Shown piece by piece: positions 40,278-56,040 of a DNA stretch of 64,000 nt. The position numbers and the translations under genes are program-made. The first letter of the stretch is position 1. Every line of letters begins with the position of its first letter. Source of the stretch: Squalus acanthias (taxonomy: Eukaryota); NCBI GenBank assembly GCA_030390025.1, contig JASTWF010000033.1:4342001-4406000 (forward strand), read 5' to 3'. The notes beneath the pieces were generated by a model that had not been told where the DNA came from, made no database searches, and saw only the letters and a list, made by a program, of their open reading frames with translations.

Positions 40278-42048
40278 AACTCCTCCTCACCCCAACTAAT
40301 ATCCTCAGCTCCTCCCCACCCCACCTGTAATCCTCAGAACCTCCTCACCCCATCTAATATCCTCAGCTCCTCCCCACACCACCTATAATCCTCAGAACCT
40401 CCTCACCCCAACTAATATCCTCAGCTCATCCCCAACCCACCTAATATCCTCAGCTCCTCCCCACCCCATCTAATATCCTCAGCTCCTCCCCACCCCATCT
40501 AATATCCTCAGCTCCTCCCCACACCACCTATAATCCTCAGAACCTCCTCACCCCAACGAATATCCTCAGCTCATCCCCACCCCACCTAATATCCTCAGCT
40601 CCTCCCCACCCCATCTAATATCCTCAGCTCCTCCTCACCCCACCTAATATCCTCAGCTCCTCCCCACCCCACCGAATATCCTCAGCTCCTCCCCCACCCC
40701 ACCTATAATCCTCAGAACCTCCTCACCCCACCTAATATCCTCAGCTCCTCCCCACCCCATCTAATATCCTCAGCTCCTGCCCACCCCACATATAATCCTC
40801 AGAACCTCCTCACCCCACCTAATATCCTCAGCTCTTCCCCACCCCACATAATATCCTCAGCTCCTCCCCACCCAATCTAATATCCTCAGCTCCTCCCCAC
40901 CCCACCTAATATCCTCAGCTCCTCCCCACCACACCTAATATCCTCTGCTCCTCCCCACCCCACCGAATATCCTCAGCTCCTCCCCACCCCACATAATATC
41001 CTCAGCTCCTCCCCACCCCACCTAATGTCCTCAGCTCCTCCCCACCCCATCTAATATCTTCAGCTCCCCCCCCCCAACACCACCTTTTATCCCCTGCTCC
41101 TCCCCACACCACCTAATATACTCAGGATATTCCCAACCCACCTAATCTCCTCAGCTCCTCCCCACCCCACCTAATATCCTCAGCTCCTCCCCACCCCACC
41201 TAATATCCTCTGCTCCTCCCCACCCCACCTAATATCCTCAGCTCCTCCCAACCCCCCCTAATATCCGCAGCTCCTCCCCACCCGACCTAAAATTCTCAGC
41301 TCCTCCCCACCCCACCTAATACCGTCAGCTCCTCCCCACCCCACCTAATATCCTCAGCTCCTCCCAACCCCATCTAATATCCTCAGCTCCTCCCCACCCG
41401 ACCTAAAATCCTCAGCTCCTCCCCACCCCATCTAATATCCTCAGCTCCTCCCCAATCCACCTAATATCCTCAGCTCTTCCCCACCCAACCGAATATCCTC
41501 AGCCCCTCCCCACTCCGCAAAATATCCTCAGCTCCTCCCCACCCCACCTAATATCCTCAGCTCCACCCCACCGCACCTAATATCCTCAGCTCCTCACCTC
41601 CCCACCTAATATCCTCAGTCTCTTCCCATCACACCTAATATCCTCAGTTCCTCCCCACCCCACCTAATATCCTCAGCTCCTCCCCACCCCACCTAATATC
41701 CTCAGCTCCTCCCCACTCCACCTAATATCCTCAGCTCCTCCCCACCCCACCTATTACCCTCAGCTCATCTCCACCCCACCTAATTTCCACAGCTCCTCCC
41801 CACCCCACCTAATATCCTCAGCTCCTCCCCACCCCACCTGATATCCTCAGCTCCTCCCCACCCCACCTAATATCCTCAGCTCCTCCTCACCCCACCTAAT
41901 GTCCTCAGCTCCTCCCCACCCCACCTAATATCATCAGCTCCTCCCCACTCCACCTAATATCCTCAGCTCCTCCACACCCCACCTAATATCCTCAGCTCCT
42001 CCCCACCCCACCTAATATCGGCAGCTGCTCCCAAATCCACCTAATACC
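40278..42048. repeat. ~29-bp C-rich minisatellite (CCTAATATCCTCAGCTCCTCCCCACCCCA), ~60 copies
   Basis: Direct periodicity. Confidence 0.95.
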
Positions 42049-43067
42049 TGAAGAGATCGCAAAGTCTCTGTTTGAAGAATGGACTCTGTCGAGAATAATT
42101 TGTGGACTTTATGGGATTTTTCTGAGAGTTATTTCCCTGTGATGGGATCACCCTTTGTAAATATGTGAAAAACTGGTTTGTTAAAACTCCAGAGAACGCA
42201 TGGCAGTTGGGTGTGACAAAATAACTGTCAGTCATCCAGAATATGCAAAAGCACTTCTCAACTCCATCTAAGAAGAGAAGCAGAACAATGAACCCACTGG
42301 CCTAGCCAGCCGAAGAGGAGTCAGTTTTTCCCAACACAAAAACCGAAATATATCCCAGACTTAGGGCCATTAGTCCAATCATGGAATACTCATGGCCTGA
42401 GGATGACACCATCACTGATTAAGCACCGAAGTGCTCAGAAACAAAAGGATTTTAAATATTGGCGGGAAAGATAGGGGTAGCAAGACTCCTATAAAGATAA
42501 ACCCTTTCCCACCATCTCCCTCTCTCTCTGTCTCGCTCTCGCTGCACCAAGATCGACCTAACAAGAAGTACCAGAGGAAGAGGCAGCTAATTGGAGCGAT
42601 CGAGACCGACTGAGTGTGGGGTTAAGCAAGGTCTCGAGTGTCACAAGCCGGTAACCAGAGGGCTGAGAATTTTTCTCAGAAGTGAAGCTTTTGGGCTATT
42701 TCGAGGGTGGGAGCTTTGTTTGGTTCAGCCAGGCGAAGGGACTTATGCGACTGGGTAATTCGTTGGTAGGGGTGGAATTAGAGTCCACCATAGCAACAAG
42801 AGAATTACTGTTTTGGACTGTATGTATGCTGTTTGTAAACTGGATTGTATTCTCCACAGAGTCAGTGATTTATGTTAGTAGTGAATGTTTTAGCCAGTGT
42901 ATGATAGACCAAATAAATATAAGTTTGATTTTCCACTGAAGCATTCCTGTCCGAGACTTATCTAATTTACACACTGAATAATAATTCCCGGGTATAGAAC
43001 GTTCGTAAGGCGGGGGCGATTCGAACCGTCCGTCTCGCAATTGGGCTAGGATCAAAAACCACTTACA
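42049..43067 (+). repeat. 5' LTR
   Basis: TGAAGAGATCGC...CCACTTACA; TATAAA ~42490, AATAAA ~42912. Confidence 0.93.
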
Positions 43068-43072
43068 TCTCT

Positions 43073-43089
43073 TGGCGACCGCGGCAGGA
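43073..43089 (+). promoter_or_regulatory. Primer binding site, possibly tRNA-Ser
   Basis: TGGCGACCGCGGCAGGA 5 nt after the LTR; partial match to the tRNA-Ser complement TGGCGTAGTCGGCAGGA. Confidence 0.6.
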
Positions 43090-43116
43090 CATGGGTTACA
43101 GGAGTGTAAATCAGTC

Positions 43117-44733: not shown

Positions 44734-46879
44734 GGTGGATGCAGCAGCGGGCAGCGTACTCCCATCCGCCCCGAACAATCCCGACCCATGACTAGGGGAT
44801 CCTCAGCCCGTTTACCTGTGCCCACTAAGATATGATGCTTGGAAGAGGCCGTGCGTGAAGATGGGGGTGGAGAAGGTGCAAGGGACCTATCTGCTGGACA
44901 CTGGAGCTTCAAGCACCATTGTCGATGCGGATAACCCGACCACATCACCTCTATCGAGCGGGGTCCCATATAACTTAGTAGGGTTCACCGGGAACGAACA
45001 GGCTGGGTCTTTCTCCATCCCGCTAGCCATCGATCTGGGTACACACTGTAAGGAGTGGAAATGTGTCCTGATGCGGTGGGAGCGGGAGGGAATAGGCATT
45101 TTGGGGGCAGACTTCATACTGGCCCACAAGATATTGGTGGATTTCCGGAATCACTGTCTATGGGGGACAGTATGCACGGGAAAGGAGAAGGAGGTGGTAG
45201 TTATACCAGGGAAGCAAGGCAAGGGAACCGTGTGTACGATGAAGCCCAATATTAGTTATGACCTGGAACTTTTGGTCACTTCTACCCCGGCGGAGTACAT
45301 AGCAGCTGTAAGAGCCAACCTCGCGGCATTCGCTACACACAAGCACGACTGTGGAAGGGTAATAGGGGTGGAGGTCAGAGTAGAAGGAAACCCCATGGCC
45401 CGACCACTGAAACAGTACAACTTCCCCAGAGAGGCAGAGGCGGATTTAGAGATGGCATTGGGATCACTGGTTGAGCAGGGTGTGTTGAGACCCTTAGCAA
45501 CCCATGTGAACTCTCCGATTTGGCTGGTTAGGAAACCGGACAATTCGTGGAGAGTCACTATGGACTATCGGGTTCTTAAAGAACACCCCAGACTGTGCCC
45601 CCACCATTGCAGCCGTAGCTGACCTGATCGGGAGTATCCCGGCATCCGCGAAAACATTCACGGTGCTGGACACTTCGAATGAATTCTGGTCTATCCCTCT
45701 CAAAAGGGAGGACCAGTATAAATTCGCATTTACTTTCAAGGGTCAGCAGTACACATGGATCTGCCTCCCCAAGGGTTTCATAACAGTCCTTCTATTTTCC
45801 ACCAATATATGGCCAACTGTTTAAAAGGGTTCAGCAGACCGCAGCAGCTTGTACAGTACGTGGACGACCTGTTTTTGTTCTCCAACGAGGGGGAGGACAA
45901 TGGCCCCCTGCTGGCTGAGCTGCTGAGTCTGTTAAAGGAAGCTGGGTTCAAGGTTAATCCCAAGAAAGCACAGATCGGCCAGCAGGAAGTAAAATTCCTC
46001 AGGCTGACCATACGTGCTGGGGAGAGGGCCATCGATGAGGCGAAAAGGAAGGCGGTACAGGAGCTACCTGCCCCGACCACGATAACGGAGGTAAGATCCT
46101 TCCTGGGACTCAGAGGGTATTGCAGGTATTTCGTAGAGGACTATGCCGCTACGGCAGCTCCTCTACTCCGGCTCCTTCACAAGGGAGTGGGATGAGGACT
46201 GCATGGCAGCTTTTAGTCGTCTGAAGAGAGATCTGCAGACCGCACCGGCTTTAGGAGCGATTGATGGGGGAAAGTAGTTATTTTTGGAGGTAGCTGCCAC
46301 CGTGGACAGTTTGAGGGCAGTGCTGCTCCAGGAGTGGCGTGCAATCTGAGGCCTGTGGTATACTCATCAAGAATCCTCACAGATGTAGAGAGGGGCTATT
46401 CCAATTGTGAGAGGCACCTGCTTGCCACACATTGGGCCGTGGGGAGATCACAAATCTTCACGGGGGCGTCCCCGTTAACTCTCTTAACCCATCATTAGCC
46501 CACTCAGATGCTTCTGGATGGGAGGATAAAGGAAGGCACGGTGAGCAGTGCACGCATTGCTCGCTGGACTTCATTGCTCTCTCAGACAAATTTGAGTGTG
46601 AAAGGCCTCTGTGAGCCCAAGCTCGCCGCAAATTTGATCTACCCAGGGGTGGCCCACAAATGTTCTGTTCAAGGGGTATGGGACGTAGACATAGGGTTTC
46701 GGGCTGGGATCCATGTGGACGGGTCCAGTACAGTGGTGGCAGGGGAGCAACTCACTGGATGCGGGATTTTTGTCCCAAAGGCAGGCATTGCCAAGGCCAT
46801 TAAACTCCCGAGCACCATGAGCGCCCAGCACGCTGCACTGTCGGCTGTGGTGTATGTGGTTACTCACCCCGAAGTGTGC

Positions 46880-48632
46880 CATAAGAACATAAGAACATAA
46901 GAAATAGGAGCAGGAGTAGGCCAATCGGCCCCTCGAGCCTGCTCCGCCATTCAATAAGATCATGGCTGATCTGATGCTAACCTCAAATCTAAAGAACACA
47001 AGAAGTAGGAGCAGGACCCGGCCACTCAGCCCCTGGGCCCGCTCCGCCACCCACAGGGCACTGACCGATCCGAACTCAGCCTCATGTCCAATTTCCTGCC
47101 CGCTCACCGTAACCCCTAATTCCCTTTACTTCTAGGAAACTGTTTTAAATTTATTTAATGATGTAGCTTCCACAGCTTCCTGGGGCAGCAAATTCCACAG
47201 ACCTATTACCCTCTGAGTGAAGAAGTTTCTCCTCATCTCGGTTTTGAAAGAGCAGCCCCTTATTCTAAGATTATGCCCTCTAGTTCGAGTTTCACCCATC
47301 CTTGGGAACATCCTTACCGCATCCACCCGATCAAGCCCCTTCACAATCTTATATGTTTCAATAAGATCGCCTCTCATTCTTCTGAACTCCAATGAGTAGA
47401 GTCCCAATCTACTCAACCTCTCCTTATATGTCCACCCCCTCATCCCCGGGATTAACCGAGTGAAACTTCTTTGTACTGCCTCGAGAGCAAGTATGTCTTT
47501 TCTTAAGTATGGACACCAAAACTGTACGCAGTATTCCAGGTGCGGTCTTACCAATACCTTATATAATTGCAGCAATATCTCCCTGTTTTTATAATCTATC
47601 ACTCTAGCAATAAAAGCCAACATTCCGTTGGCCTTCTTGATCACCTGCTGCACCTGCATAGTAACTTTTTGATTTTCTTGCACTAGGACCCCCAGATCCC
47701 TTTGTACTGCAGTACTTTCCAGTTTCTCGCCATTAAGATAATAACTTGCTCTCTGATTTTTCCTGCCAAAGTGCATAACCTCACATTTTCTAATATTGTA
47801 TTGCATCTGCCAAACTCCGCCGACTCACCCAGCCTGTCTATATCCCCTTGTAGGTTTTTTATGTCCTGCTCACTTTCTACTTTCCCTCCCATCATTCTAT
47901 CATCTGCAAACTTAAATATGTTACACTCGGTCCCCTCCTCCAAATCGTTAATATAGATTGTAAAGAGTTGGGGACCCAGCACCGACCCCTGCGGAACAAC
48001 ACTGGCTACTGGTTGCCAGTCCGAGAATGAACCATTTATCCCAACTCTCTGCTTCCTGTTAGATAACCAATCCTCCACCCATGCCAGAATGTTACCCCCA
48101 ATCCAGGGATTTTTTATCTTGAGCAATAATCTTTTGTGTGGCACCTTGTCGAATACCTTCTGGAAGTCTAAATACACGACGTTCACTGATTCCCCTTTAT
48201 CCACCCTGTACGATATGTCCTCAAAGAACTCAAGCAAATTTGTCAGACATGACTTCCCCTTCATAAAGCCATGCTGACTTTGTCCTATTAAATTATGTTT
48301 ATCTAAATGTTCCGTTACTGTCTCCTTAATAAAATACTCCAAAATTTTACCCACCACAGATGTTAGGCTAACTGGTCTATAATTTCCAGCCTTCTGCCTA
48401 CTACCCTTTTTAAATAAGGGTGTTACATTAGCAGTTTTCCAATCTTCCGGGACCTTTGCTGAGTCCAGGGAATTTTGGAAAATTATTACCAAAGCATCCA
48501 CAATCCCTACTGCCACTTCCCTCAAGACCCTAGGATGAAAGCCATCAGACCCAGGGGATTTATCCGCCTTGAGTCCCATTATTTTACTGAGTACCAATTC
48601 CTTAGTGATTTTAATCGTATTTAGCTCCTCCA
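46880..48632 (-). mobile_element. CR1 inserted in the proviral RNase H
   Basis: ORFs 47683-48633 and 47132-47806 with CR1 RT motifs; RH reading resumes after ~48640. Confidence 0.95.
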
Positions 48633-49109
48633 CTATAGTACCTTACGCCCTATAATATTTGCTCGGACAGCATGTTCACCTGCAATTCGTGTGCAGAATA
48701 TTTAGCCATTTGGTCTCGTCGCGGGTTCACATCTGCAGACGGCAAACCCCTAGCAACAAAGCCATTGTTGCAACAGATCATAACATCGATAGGAACCGAG
48801 GGGGAATTCTATATCCACAAAGTTAAGGCCCATTCAAAGGCGGAACCCCGTGCGGAGGGCAATCAGCAGGCCAACGTGATGACCAAAGAGGGTGCTCGAA
48901 CGGGCACGTTTTGGGATCCATATGGGTCGAGTCAGGTAGCAGCGATCAGAGACAGAGGTGGGGCCCAAGGGAGTGCAGGGGTAGCATTGGCCATGGACCT
49001 AAAGATTGTCCAGGCACGGGATCTGTCCTAAAGACTGTTCTGGAGATGCTGGCTAAGGGAGATAAGGTAGAGCGTCCATAAGGAGTGGCAGGTATCTCGG
49101 TAAATACGT

Positions 49110-50533
49110 AGTACCATTATTCAAGAAGGGTAGTAGGGATAAACCAGTGAATTACAGGCCAGTGAGCCTAACATCAGTGGTAGGGAAATTATTGGAAAAA
49201 ATTCTGAGGGACAGAAATATTCTCCACTTGGAGAGGCAAGGATTATTCAAGGATAGTCATCATGGCTTTATCAGTGGGAGATCATGTCTGACCAATTTGA
49301 TTGAATTTTTAGAGGGGGTGACTAGGTGTATGGATGAGGGTAGTGCAGTTGATGTAGTCTACATGGACTTCAGTAAGGCTTTTGACAAAGTCCCGCAAGG
49401 GAGACTGGTCAAGAAGGTAAAAGCCCATGGTATCCAGTGCAACTGGCACATTTGATCCAAAATTGGCTTAGTGGCAGGAGGCAGAGGGTGATGGTCGAAT
49501 GTTGTTTTTGTGACTGGAAGCCTGTGTCCAATGCTGGGTCCTTTGCTGTTTGTAGTGTACATTAATGATTTAGATATGAATGTAGGAGGTATGATCAGTA
49601 CGTTCGCAGATGACACGAAAATTGGTGGGGTGGTAAATAGTGAGGAGGGAAGCCTCCGGCTACAGGACGATATAGACGGGTTGGATAGATGGGTAGAACA
49701 GTGGCAAATGGAATTTAACCCTGAAAAGTGTGAGGTGATGCATTTTGGGAGGACTAACAAAGCAACGGAATACACAATGAATGGTAGGACCCGAGGAAGG
49801 ACAGAGGATCAGAAGGACCTTGGTGAGCATGCACATAGATCCCGGAAGGCAGCAGGACAGGATGATAAGGTGGTTAAAAAGACATATGGGAAACTTGCCT
49901 TCATTAGCCGAGGCATAGAATATAAGAGCAGCGAGGTTATGATGGAGCTGTACAAAACGGTAGTTTGGCCTCAGCTGGAATACTGTGTGCAGTTCTGGTC
50001 GCCACACTATAGGAAGGATGTGAGTTAATTGGAGAGGCTGCAGAAGAGATTCACCAGGATGTTACCTGGGCTGGAGCGCTTCAGCTATGAAGAGAGACTG
50101 GACAGGCTGGGGTTGTTTTCCTTAGAGCAGAGAAGGCTGAGCGGGGACCTGATTGAGGTGTACACAATTATGAGGGGCATAGATAGGGTAGATAGAAAGG
50201 AACGTTTTCCCTTAGTAGAGGGGTCAATAACCAGGGGGCATAGTTTCAAGGGAAGGGGCAGGAGGTTTAGAGGGGATTTGAGGAAAAACTTTTTCACCCA
50301 GAGGGTGGTTGGAATCTGTAACTCACTGCCTGAAAGGATGGTAGAGGCAGGAACCTTCACAACATTAAAGAAGCATTAAATGAGCACTTGAAACGCCATA
50401 GCATACAAGGCTACGGACCAAGTGCTGGAAAATGGGATTAGAATAGACAGGGCTTGATGGCCGGTGCGGACTCGATGTGCCGAAGGGCCTCTTTCTGTGC
50501 TGTATAATTCTATGACTCTATGATTCTATAACT
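49110..50533 (+). mobile_element. CR1 inserted at the start of the proviral integrase
   Basis: NYRPVSLTSVVGK, FADDTK, LEYCVQFWSP; (CTATGACT)n-type tail; same family as 2743-4100. Confidence 0.93.
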
Positions 50534-51454
50534 CTAAAGGAAGGGATGGTTTTCAGAGGGGAACAGTGGAAGTTCCGCAGCAGCACCGGAGAGAAGTCCT
50601 TCAGTTGGCCCACGAGGGTCCAGGAGCGGGGCACCCCGGGCCGGAGACCACCTGGCAACGGGTGGAACAGGCAGGGTGGTGACCGCAACTGAGGGAGCGC
50701 GCCGCGACTTCTGCGTGGATTGCTTGTTGTGTGCTGCAAACAACCCTGACTCCCAAAAAAGGAAGGTATCCATGGGACACACTAGGAGAGTGGAGGGACC
50801 ATGGCTGTCCATACAGGTCGATTATATCGGACCGCTGCCCACCGCGCAGGGGAGTTACAAGTACTGCCTGCTCCTGGTGGATGTGTTCACTAAATAGGTG
50901 GAAGCCTTCCCATGCCGAACAGCCACAGCTTTGTGGACCGCAAAGATTCTAGTGAGATAAGTGTTCTCTAGGTGGGGGCTATCACGGTATGTGGAGTCCG
51001 ATCAGGGGAGTCACTTCACAGGGGCAGCCATGCAGGTGACTCTGAAGATGCCAGGTGCAGACTGGTGTAGAGGGTAAATGGCACGTCACACACAACCCGC
51101 AGTCATCGGGGATTGTGGAGCGGATGAATAGGACCATCAAGGAAAGGTTACGGTAGGAGACAGGAGACTCGCCTCGAAAATGGGCAGAGGTCTTGCCGTT
51201 AGTTCTGATGGGTGTCCGAGCCAGCCCGTCCAGAAGCACAGGGTATTCCCAGTATGAGCTCGTGACTGGCAGGGTGGCGCTGTACATAACTTATTTCTCT
51301 CCTGTCTGTTGCCTTAGCTTGTCTGTATAGTTTGGATTTACATGTATGCTGTGGATACCAAATGTAATCGTGTGTAGCTGCGTCTGGAAAGGTGAGGCAT
51401 CACCCAAGGACAACGTTGCTTTCTGTGTCTTTTCAGGGAACGCCTAAGAACAAG

Positions 51455-52699
51455 ATGAAGTCAGCCATGGTAATCCTAATCTTCATGATTGAAGCAAGCG
51501 CGAGTCACAGGGGCGACCCCGGGAATCGGTTGTCTTCTCCTGCACCGGCGGAGACGGACCGACCGTGACCACTGGAGGTGGCTCGAATGATGGGGCGAGC
51601 GTCTATCTCCACGAGGGAAGATGTCCTGGATGGCTGTGCTCGAATTCCACCCGGTATTCCAGCCATGACAAGTTAACCTATGGTGAAGCGTCCATCCCAT
51701 TCCTGAGAATAGGGGTTAGCACCTCCCGGGTTAGGGTAACAGAGGGTAAACGGGTGTGCCTTAGCTGTAGGGGACACATTCCACTGGGAAGGTGGTGGTG
51801 GCTCAGGAAACAGAGCATGGATACAGGGGACCAGACAGCTGACTGTGAAAGACTAAGTACTGACACGTACCGGACGATCACGGGTTCTCAGGGAGGAGTG
51901 AATGTGTGTTGGGATAAGTGGTGGGAATCCGAGGAAGGGATTTATGTGTGTATGTGGGGGTCGGAAAAGATCTGCCCAGCGGGTGTGTTGATCGCGTTTA
52001 GCAGGCGATGGCAGGACGCCAGGGGTGGGATCGGTTGGGATCGGAGTGTGTACTCCTGTTTGATCCCAATACCCCCGAATACCATCAACGCCACAGAGCT
52101 CATCCAACACACCAGGAAGCCCCCGCCCAGAGCCCCGACGGTACAGACGGCTGTAGATGGGTGTCCCACCACCACCAGGGGTCCAGGGAATGGGTTGGTG
52201 TTAATCCCGACTGACAAAGTGTTGTTTCAGAACGTGCTCTACGCCGTGGCATCCGTGACCCTGAACCTGACTGAAGTCCATCTGCCTGTGTGGTGTCCAA
52301 GGAAGACGGAGAAGCTTTATGAAGCTCTGTTAAAAGCGATGTTTCAGGAATTTTTTGAACTGGACCATGGACATGTAGAGAAAGAAGAGCTTAATAATCT
52401 GAATGTTGGGGATAGTGTGGGGTCCGGGAGGCAGTGAACAGGGACCTGGAACGATTCCTTTTCTGCCGGAACATCTCACTGAGTTAATAAAGACCGTTGA
52501 ACTCTCCCAGAAACATTTTTACACTTTGGAGCAAAAGACAGTAGAAGTGGGGGAGGAGATCAGGGGGATTGTCTCGCCACCATGGTGGGATATCGGTCTG
52601 AGTGTAGAGATTCCTCCCTGGATCCGCATCTGTTCCCATGCATTAGTTATCATACAATTGTTGCTTGTAAGCTACTTGTTCTACACCAGCTGCAGGTGA
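51455..52699 (+). pseudogene. env: env-like gene: signal peptide, Ig-like domain, fusion-protein-like remnant, heptad and TM anchor; frameshifted and internally deleted
   Basis: Acceptor TTTCTGTGTCTTTTCAG at 51436; MKSAMVILIFMIEASAS; ORF 51565-52437; C-terminal LTELIKTVELSQKHFYTLEQK...HALVIIQLLLVSYLFY. Confidence 0.75.
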
Positions 52700-52854
52700 T
52701 GGAGACAGATGCTCCGAGCGCGGTGACAAGGGGTGTTAGATCGATCCGGAAAGGTGTCATTGATTTATGTTGATGATGGTTTCTCCCTGCAAAAACTTGT
52801 AATGTACCAAGGTTCTGTTAGCAAGTGTATTGTATTCTGGTTATAGTTTTACAC

Positions 52855-53098
52855 TCTGTATTGTGCGATGTGCGCTGTTGTATTTTTGTAATGTGTTACC
52901 ACCTGTCAATGCTGTACTGTGTGATGTGCGCTGTTGTATTTTTGTAATGTGTTACCACCTGTCAATGCTGTACTGTGTGATGTGCGCTGTTGTATTTTTG
53001 TAATGTGTTACCACCTGTCAATGCTGTACTGTGTGATGTGCGCTGTTGTATTTTTGTAATGTGTTACCACCTGTCAATGATGTACTGTGTGATGTGCG
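52855..53098. repeat. 56-bp tandem repeat, ~4 copies, in the proviral 3' untranslated region
   Basis: GTGATGTGCGCTGTTGTATTTTTGTAATGTGTTACCACCTGTCAATGCTGTACTGT repeated. Confidence 0.93.
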
Positions 53099-53375
53099 CG
53101 GTGACCTTTTGGTAACGTCCTGTGGATCTTATTAATTTTCTGTATTTTGACTTGAAGTTTGTCGGTGGGAATTGGAACCCAGCCATTTGAATGTGTTCAG
53201 AAGCCGTTTCGCTGATGTTTTGACTCGGTAGAAGGGAACTATGACACGCGGTAAGGGGGTACAGTTCTGAGGTTAAAATGTAAAATTAGGGAAACAGCTT
53301 CACTTGTGGGAGACTTTGGCCTTTGCTCTCTCACCGAGTGATGCTTTGTGTAAAGACAAGCATCATACGGGGGAC

Positions 53376-54407
53376 TGAAGAGATCGCAAAGTCTCTGTTT
53401 GAAGAATGGACTCAGTCGAGAATATTTTGTGGATATTATGGGATTTTTCGGAGGGTATTTTCCCTGTGATGGGCTCACCTGGGCAGATATGTGAAAAAGT
53501 GGTTTGTTAAAACTCCAGAGAATGCATGGCAGTTGGCTGTGACAAAAGAACTGTCAGTCATCCAGAATATGCAAAAGCACTTCTCACCTCCATCTCAGAA
53601 GAGAAGCAGAACAATGAACCCACTGGCCTAGCCAGCCGGAGAGGAGCCAATTTTTCCCAACACAAAGACCGAATTATGTCCCAGACTTAGGGCCATCAGT
53701 ACAAACACGGATACACATGGGTCTGAGGATGACCCCATCACTGATTAAGCACTGGAGTGCTTAGAAACAAAAGGATTTTAAAGGTTGGCGGGAAAGATAG
53801 GGGTAGCAAGACTCCTATAAAGATAGATCCTTTCCCACCATCTCTCTCTCTCTCTGTCTCTCTCTCGCCCCAACAAGATCGACCTAACAAGAAGTACCAG
53901 AGGAAGAAGCAGCTAAGCAGAGCGATCGAGACGGACTGTGTGTGGGGCTAAGCATGGTCTCGAGTGTCCCAAGCCGGTAACCAGAGGGCTCAGAGTTTTT
54001 CTCAAAAGTGAGGCTTTTGGGCTATTCTGAGGGTCAGAGCTTCATTTGGTTCAGCCAGGGGAAAGGGCCTTATGCGACTGAGTAATTCGTTGGTAGGGGT
54101 GGAATGAGACTCCACCATAGCAACAAGGGAATTGCTGCTTGTCATAGTCCTCAGTTTTGTACTGTATGTATGTTGTTTGTAACCTGGATTTTATTCTCCA
54201 CAGAGTCAGTAATTTCGTTTAGTAGTGCATGTTTTAGCCAGTGTATGTTAGACCAAATAAATATAAGTTTGATTTTTCACTGAAACATTCCTGTCCGTGA
54301 CTTATTTCACACTCTGAATAATAATTCCCGGGTATAGAACTTTCGTAAGGCGGGGGCGATTCGAACCGTCCATCTAGCAATTGGGCTAGGATCAAAAACC
54401 ACTTACA
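53376..54407 (+). repeat. 3' LTR
   Basis: Colinear with 42049-43067; preceded by a short purine tract GGGGGAC. Confidence 0.93.
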
Positions 54408-56040
54408 TAGGGAAATGGTGTTAGGGAAATTGATGGGATTGAAGGCCGATAAATCCCCAGGGCCTGATAATCTACATCATAGGGTATGTAAGGAAGTGGC
54501 CAAAGAAATAGTAGATGCATTGCTGGTCATCTTCCAAAATTCTATCGACTCTGGAACAGTTCCCATGCATTGGAGGATAGCTAATGTAACTCCACTATTT
54601 AAAAAAGGTGGTCCAGAGAAAACAGGGAATTATAGCCCGGTAAGTCTGACATCGGTAGTGGAAAAAATGCTTGAGTCCATTATAAAAGATGTAATAGCAG
54701 AGCACTTGGAAAACAGTGACAGGATCGGACAAATTCAACATGGATTTACAAAAGGTAAATCATGCTTGACTAATCTACTGAAATTTTTTGAGGATGTAAC
54801 TGGTAGAATAGATAAGGGAGAACCAGTGGATGTGGTGTATTTTGACTTTCAGAAGGTTTTCGATAAGGTCCCGCATAAGAGATTAGCAAGCAAATTTAAA
54901 GCACATGGGATTGGGGGTAAGGTACTGCCTTGGATAGAAAACTGGTTGGCAGACAGGAAGCAAAGAGTTGGAATAAACGGGTATTTTTGACAGTGGCAGG
55001 CAGTGACTAGTGGGGTACCGCAGGGATCGGTGCTAGGACCCCAGCTATTCACAATATATATTAATGATCTAGACGAGGGAACTAAATGTAATATCTCCAA
55101 GTTTGTAGACGACATAAAGCTGGGTGGGTGTGTATGCTTTGAGGAGGATGCAGAGAAACTCCAGTATGATTTGGACTGGTTGGGTGATTGGGCAGATGCA
55201 TGACAAATGCAGTATAATGTGGATAAATGCGAGGTTATACACTTCAGTGGCAAAAACAGGAAGGCAGATTATTATCTGAACGGCAATAGATTGGGAAAAG
55301 GGGAAGTGCAACGAGACCTGGGAGTCCTTGTGCACCAGTCGCTGAAGGTAAGAATGCAGGTGCAGCAGGCAGTTAAGAAGGCAAATGGTATGTTGGGCTT
55401 CATAGCGAGAGGATTCGAGTACAGGAACAAGGATGTCTTGCTGCAGTTGTACAGGGCCTTGGTGAGACCACACCTTGAGTATTGTGTGCAGTTTTGGTGG
55501 CCTTATCTGAGGAAGGATGTTCTTGTCATGGAGAGAGTGCAGCGAAGATTCACCAGACTGATACCTGCGATGTCAGGAATGACATATGAGGAGAGATTGG
55601 GTCGATTAAGCTTATATTCGCTAGAGTTTAGAGAATGAGAGGGGATCTCATTGAAACTTATACAATTCCAACAAGACTAGACAGACTAGATGCAGGAAAG
55701 ATGTTCCCGATGGCGGGGGAGTCCAGAACTTGGGGTCACAGACGAAGGATAAGGGGTAAGCCATTTAGGACTGAGATGAGGAGGAATTTCTTCACCCAGA
55801 GAGTGGTGAACCTGTGGAATTCTCTACCACAGAAGGTAGTAGAAGTCAATTCATTAAATATATTCAAGAAGGAGCTAGATATTTTTCTTAAGGCTAAAGG
55901 AATCAAGGGATATGGGGAGAAAGCAGGGACAGGGTACTGAGTTTGGATGATCAGCCATGATCTCATTAAATGGCAGAGCAGGCACGAGGGGCCGAATGGC
56001 CTACTCCTGCTCCTATCGTCTATGTTTCTATGTTTCTATG
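54408..56040 (+). mobile_element. CR1 LINE (RT to 3' end)
   Basis: KADKSPGPD, DFQKVFDKVPH, GVPQGSVLGP, RPHLEYCVQFW; (TTCTATGT)n tail. Confidence 0.95.

Follow-up and report, generated by a model that had tools for sequence, protein, structure and literature searches.

F-type fusogens normally need a separate attachment protein as partner. Foamy virus Env is the one retroviral Env that we know to carry a binding domain on the F (fusion protein) scaffold itself. There the receptor-binding domain (RBD) is internal, and F has been described as a scaffold on which binding modules can be mounted (Fernández et al. 2024, PMC11468914; here and below, statements about cited work refer to the available parts of each source). 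Lokiretrovirus Env is F-like as well, with a signal peptide, an RxxR site, a coiled coil and a transmembrane (TM) anchor (Wang and Han, PMC7947760). In gamma-type Env the RBD is a modified immunoglobulin (Ig) variable (IgV) fold, RBDs transfer between lineages, and one Env, Env-Dbi, captured a SIRP-like host IgV domain (Hötzel, bioRxiv 10.1101/2024.03.17.585361). Here we describe a 64,000-nt stretch of the Squalus acanthias genome (GCA_030390025.1, contig JASTWF010000033.1, positions 4,342,001 to 4,406,000; hereafter the window) that holds a broken long terminal repeat (LTR) retrovirus with a decayed env gene, which encodes a signal peptide, an Ig-like domain, a Pro/Thr-rich linker and the beginning of an F-type fusogen.

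An N-terminal Ig head on F unites two themes that have been described separately, the Ig-fold RBDs of gamma-type Env and the F-type Env of loki- and foamy viruses, and we regard it as a real combination that has probably gone undescribed so far. Like gamma-type Env and Env-Dbi, the window family has an IgV-type domain N-terminal to the rest of Env, and like Env-Dbi it has the cysteines for a disulfide between strands B and F plus an extra pair, but the fusion unit is gamma-type in those proteins and class Ib F-type here (Hötzel). The foamy RBD has a novel fold and is inserted before the furin site, whereas the module of the window family is Ig-like and N-terminal, spike-like in position (PMC11468914). 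None of the literature searched describes an F-type retroviral Env that bears an Ig head, the Env of snakehead retrovirus (SnRV) itself not being among the proteins examined, and in the available part of the Hötzel preprint we found no shark or fish-wide survey (‘shark’ and ‘fish’ each occur 0 times). What appears to be new is the presence of an Ig head on a fusogen of the F/foamy type; the 22 readable published loki Envs have no such head.

An Ig-like head joined to an F-type fusion module

We favor, with moderate confidence, the reading that the window env is the decayed gene of an SnRV-like endogenous retrovirus (ERV) of cartilaginous fish, encoding an Ig-headed class Ib fusogen whose attachment head was host-derived and exchanged between lineages. 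Env would be a single polypeptide, translated from a spliced leader–env mRNA and consisting of a signal peptide, a head with a V/I-type Ig domain, a Pro/Thr stalk and a class Ib module resembling paramyxovirus F and foamy Env, with a furin site, heptad repeats and a TM anchor. After cleavage the head would remain on the F2-like subunit, and its likeliest role would be that of a built-in attachment or receptor-binding module otherwise lacking in F-type fusogens. Its probable source is a host Ig-superfamily (IgSF) gene, and lineages may have swapped heads while the fusion module stayed conserved.

The earlier note on this DNA had described one open reading frame running from a signal-peptide-like start to a TM anchor. 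All of its motifs are present, namely the splice acceptor, the ATG, CLSC (51757–51768), WWWL (51793–51804), EEGIYVC (51931–51951), the linker, GNGLVLIP (52186–52209) and the TM segment, but in the window copy env lies in three pieces, broken by a frameshift, a stop codon and a deletion of about 1 kb. The signal-like start occupies one frame, which reaches a stop at 51566–51568; the Ig motif, linker and F2 lie in a second (51493–52437, 314 codons) that stops inside the cleavage site; and the TM-bearing tail, to 52699, is back in the frame of the signal-like start. The window copy cannot make a fusogen. Separately, an RGD tripeptide directly follows the signal peptide (51509–51517) in both families of this genome and is absent from the skate copy.

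A protein-level search of the 3.7-Gb genome gave at least 150 matches, and the best 30 loci were compared in detail; among the matches listed, 59 have 77–100% and 91 have 62–65% protein identity, and we therefore recognize two families in the genome. Sibling long frames carry a furin-type site followed by an N-terminal peptide, heptad repeats and a C-terminal TM segment, an arrangement broken or deleted in the window, and their Pro+Thr content is 0.31–0.37 in the 35 residues preceding the F module vs 0.12 within it. In the structural model of a sister-family copy we found the F fold, with domains I–III, the long central helix and the second heptad region, and Foldseek matched this copy to human parainfluenza virus 3 (hPIV3) F at E 1.5e-10. 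The module is thus firmly predicted to be an F-type (class Ib) fusogen, as the earlier note had proposed, and not part of an ordinary gamma/epsilon-type Env: neither CX6CC nor LQNR occurs in the three long frames checked from two families, and the family's long frames have no Pfam match to gamma-type Env or retroviral coat proteins. Two points weigh on the other side. The fold was assessed on the sister-family copy, the window copy being without most of the module, and single-sequence Pfam scans were poor, with Fusion_gly matched in 2/40 members at a best E of 0.026.

For the head, an Ig fold is probable from models and profiles, and the earlier note's claim of one is supported with less strength than its claim of an F-type module. 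The Ig-domain cysteines lie 61 residues apart, with a Trp at +11 and an [DE]xGxYxC F-strand, which is canonical V/I-set spacing and is invariant in all six aligned rows. When the frame was shuffled 200,000 times, 32 shuffles contained a loose Ig pattern and none a stricter one, both patterns having been written after the sequence was seen. The best PDB profile match is CRTAM (E 0.009), fold matches are nearly all Ig, and language-model features point to Ig (0.88–0.90). A ratio of nonsynonymous to synonymous change (dN/dS) of 0.15 over the domain indicates purifying selection on the head. Weighing against an Ig head captured from a host, the structural model is weak (mean pLDDT 41, core 52–64), Foldseek gave no match at E <= 0.001, the VIA Z score is below 8, which according to the tool may mean only a common arrangement, Pfam Ig scores all fall under the curated cut-off (best 20.4 bits vs 30), and no host donor gene was found, including in a search of 1.8 billion proteins. 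The earlier note's premise that the classical retroviral surface subunit is not Ig was wrong for its N-terminal part, where gamma-type Env has an RBD built on a modified form of the IgV fold (Hötzel 2024).

Different heads on a conserved fusion module

Of the 1.8 billion proteins searched, 48 matched, and the named relatives come from skate, sharks and frogs. In 13 relatives the F module aligns with E values from 1e-17 to 3e-110, but the head reaches only E >= 0.016 against the window-family head, and some of these heads are Ig-like; the retention of the F module under heads that cannot be aligned to that of the window family also appears to be new. Among head groups, 27 of 28 pairs have hhalign E > 0.02, one pair falling under 0.02. 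The P0011-family head, labelled Ig-like by its source, can be aligned with the window head over 79 columns, the Ig strands in register (hhalign E 0.0097, at a probability of just 4%). V-set-like heads that lack the canonical cysteines are present in P0032 and in the Env start to which the frog Pol P0066 is fused (Pfam E 0.045). Residues ~90–185 of P0020, a Pelodytes Env (KAM8960540.1), match antibody heavy-chain V sequences and include a J-like WGxG strand (best E 0.0049), so that its head could possibly be a captured rearranged antigen-receptor transcript. P0048, sister to P0032, is headless, although its record could be a deletion. In a midpoint-rooted tree of 17 Env rows, Ig-like heads are scattered on both sides of the root.

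The Squalus genome holds several further F-type env families (L049–L056, L043–L048), each with its own head and adjoining different Pol types, and this association suggests env exchange between lineages; seven other heads from the same genome gave no Ig match. The different front domains that relatives carry on one machine suggest swappable cell-attachment heads. More broadly, and tentatively, sharks, rays and frogs may harbor a widespread clade of basal retroviruses that share one F chassis and bear interchangeable Pro/Thr-stalked heads, several of them from independent captures of host IgSF domains and that of P0020 perhaps from an antigen-receptor transcript. Such a clade would offer a retroviral parallel to the layout of the coronavirus spike and a natural series in which to follow the acquisition of a receptor-binding module by a bare F protein. 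With many different heads in one genome, capture and exchange become testable through comparative structure alone.

Placement of the retroviral lineage

The earlier note had taken lokiretrovirus Env as its frame of comparison, and the element and lokiretroviruses indeed share an F-like Env and a dual RNase H in pol, the F modules opening with the same (P)GPxxG-aliphatic motif (PMC7947760). In 22 of 23 loki entries showing the N-terminus, however, Env is headless, a signal-like segment leading directly into the F motif, whereas ~220 residues separate the two in our element. The reverse transcriptase (RT) also departs from that framing. In the sister family it reads LDISNGFWSI / LPQGFHNSP, like SnRV, where loki RTs read LDCAQGYWTI / LPFGY (supplement of PMC7947760). 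The sister family and SnRV have in common LDISNGFWSI, QQYTWxxLPQGFHxSPxIFHQ and QYVDD in RT, and CTxYLAxWxRRG..ADG in RNase H. Pol of the element lacks the long N-terminal region present in two loki Pol entries, and its nearest relatives comprise one match at 82%, followed by frog and coelacanth proteins at 42–44%. The element would thus resemble loki in Env function but, from its sequence, is probably not a lokiretrovirus.

Against the SnRV-like placement it should be said that all these motif comparisons were made by eye, and that the RT tree (65 rows), which sets the element apart from 14 gypsy-like rows and outside a 30-row gamma/epsilon-like group, holds no SnRV, loki or foamy reference. 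In the published surveys, coelacanth and cartilaginous fish both have SnRV-like ERVs, one of them being CmiERV lineage I of elephant shark (Han 2015, PMC4422223; PMC4977317), and loki was reported from 0/6 chondrichthyan genomes (PMC7947760). With this finding F-type Env would also be represented among lineages with SnRV-like Pol, a point relevant to the question of whether the ancestral retroviral fusogen was F.

Alternative origins and roles of the head

Low pLDDT, sub-threshold Pfam scores and the lack of a significant Foldseek match, together with an atypical Trp-rich E–F segment and an extra cysteine pair, would fit a beta-rich viral domain whose likeness to Ig arose through convergence or by chance. 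We consider this improbable, as motif spacing, profile search, language-model features and two fold comparisons all indicate Ig and nothing else. A comparably small chance attaches to an origin from another retrovirus, in which a gamma-type RBD-C and its proline-rich region arrived by recombination inside env and no host gene was involved. RBD transfer between distant Env groups is documented, RBD-C is IgV-like in the Env of ZFERV from fish (Hötzel), the head has a CxxC as well as its Pro/Thr stalk, and F-type env stands beside different Pol types in this genome, so recombination is common. But RBD-C as described there is without the B–F disulfide, whereas in the head neither cysteine varies, nor does the canonical E/F-strand spacing; the listed fold and profile matches include no retroviral RBD, and the family's long frames have neither CX6CC nor a gamma-type Env match.

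Repeated capture may also be the wrong history: a single ancestral Ig head could have been inherited clade-wide and diverged past recognition, with some losses and replacements. We give this perhaps one chance in a few: the Ig-register alignment of the P0011-family head, itself of low probability, and the presence of Ig-like heads on both sides of the midpoint root agree with it, but the frog heads seem to represent more than one Ig subtype, V-set-like in P0032/P0066 and antibody-VH-like in P0020, and nearly all head-group pairs stay above E 0.02. Nor need a real Ig head bind an entry receptor. It might act on immunity or shield the fusion module, as a CRTAM/nectin-like or CD2-like ligand mimic or a decoy, an option we think rather unlikely. 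Its best profile matches are immune-cell IgSF domains (CRTAM, CD79b and T cell receptor V), published loki Envs and P0048 are headless, so entry may not need a head, and strong purifying selection agrees equally with a host ligand that is conserved and with a receptor. Gamma-type Env, on the other hand, carries its RBD at the same place, N-terminal on a Pro-rich stalk (Hötzel), and no separate attachment gene is seen in the window's element.

A deletion subfamily and env expression

The fusion-core deletion is common to 16 of the 30 best loci, including the window, while 14 continue past the junction; it is therefore inherited and marks a subfamily, to which the window copy belongs, that kept spreading without its own fusogen. 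Relative to L016 it measures 1,018 nt, and one contig of run X2 bridges the junction with ~1 kb intervening. A signal-like start and the Ig motif share a frame at 12 of the 30 loci, with a pattern that missed three loci outright. At two of the 30 loci, L008 and L010, a single frame of 443 codons runs through the deletion, from the signal-like start and the Ig head to F2 and the TM anchor. By its sequence the product would be a membrane-anchored Ig head without fusion core, which, if it is expressed, could block receptors.

In run X5, which comes from another organism and is RNA only by guess, one contig joins LTR-leader-like sequence to 51436. A canonical donor lies exactly at this joint in two sibling LTRs, the window's own LTRs being non-canonical there. 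This single contig of a relative speaks for the acceptor and for splicing of the env message. Separately, four public gene models (P0002, P0003, P0010, P0036) fuse env-family pieces to zinc finger, Niban-like, cadherin-like and F-box genes; these joins are either annotation artefacts or exonised env pieces.

Structure of the element in the window

Table 1. Features of the retroviral element, in window coordinates.
Feature	Position	Strand	Basis or remark
5′ LTR	42048–43068	+	89.1% identity to 53375–54408, Kimura two-parameter distance 0.092; seems shortened at its own 5′ end
TATA-like box in 5′ LTR	42490	+	sequence context
Leader splice donor region	near 42621	+	donor context
Primer-binding site, complementary to tRNA-Arg(TCG) 3′ end	43073–43090	+	
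gag frame, stop to stop, 574 aa	43009–44733	+	CCHC zinc knuckle (Pfam zf-CCHC E 7.7e-05)
pol 5′ part, fragmented: protease, RT, tether (degenerate RNase H)	44792–47135	+	RVP E 0.002, RVT_1 E 6e-17, RT_RNaseH E 8e-07
pol piece: second RNase H, flanked by LINE-like insertions	48639–49031	+	RNase_H E 3.7e-09
pol piece: integrase remnant, broken	50538–51290	+	by eye vs sister-family Pol
env splice acceptor: pyrimidine tract and AG	51415–51436	+	sequence; one run X5 contig; sibling LTR donor fits joint
Signal-peptide-like Env start	51455–51508	+	ATG 51455; frame break near 51520
N-terminal segment preceding Ig core	51520–51693	+	conserved to skate copy; dN/dS 0.32; pLDDT < 50
Ig-like (V/I-type) domain	51694–52002	+	motif spacing, fold/profile matches; dN/dS 0.15
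Cys/Trp segment and Pro/Thr-rich linker	52003–52161	+	dN/dS 0.33
F2-like start of class Ib fusion module	52162–52437	+	stop codon within furin-type site ends frame
Junction of inherited ~1.0-kb deletion	52452–52455	+	fusion peptide, first heptad repeat and Cys-rich core gone
Second heptad region, TM anchor, short tail	52456–52699	+	hydrophobic TM 52628–52684
3′ LTR (part homologous to 5′ LTR)	53375–54408	+	LINE-like insertion directly after

The primer of SnRV is an arginine tRNA. The integrase remnant has no Pfam match of its own, and its reading is based on the rve domain of the sister-family Pol. The 3′ LTR probably starts near 53260, after a short purine run. Insertions resembling long interspersed elements (LINEs), which we take to be CR1-like, lie at 47132–48642 and 49066–50379, inside pol, and from 54409 onward, after the 3′ LTR.

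Between env and the 3′ LTR, at ~52850–53110, is a tandem repeat of ~53 bases whose copy number varies among sibling loci. A large satellite with 18/54-base periodicity lies near the beginning of the window, at 146–~2000 and further on. Elsewhere, G000:C26 39.0–42.2 Mb (L058, L059) holds long tandem arrays of ~1.6-kb period with tRNA-Arg(TCG) and tRNA-Ser(GCT), a pattern with 422 matches genome-wide.
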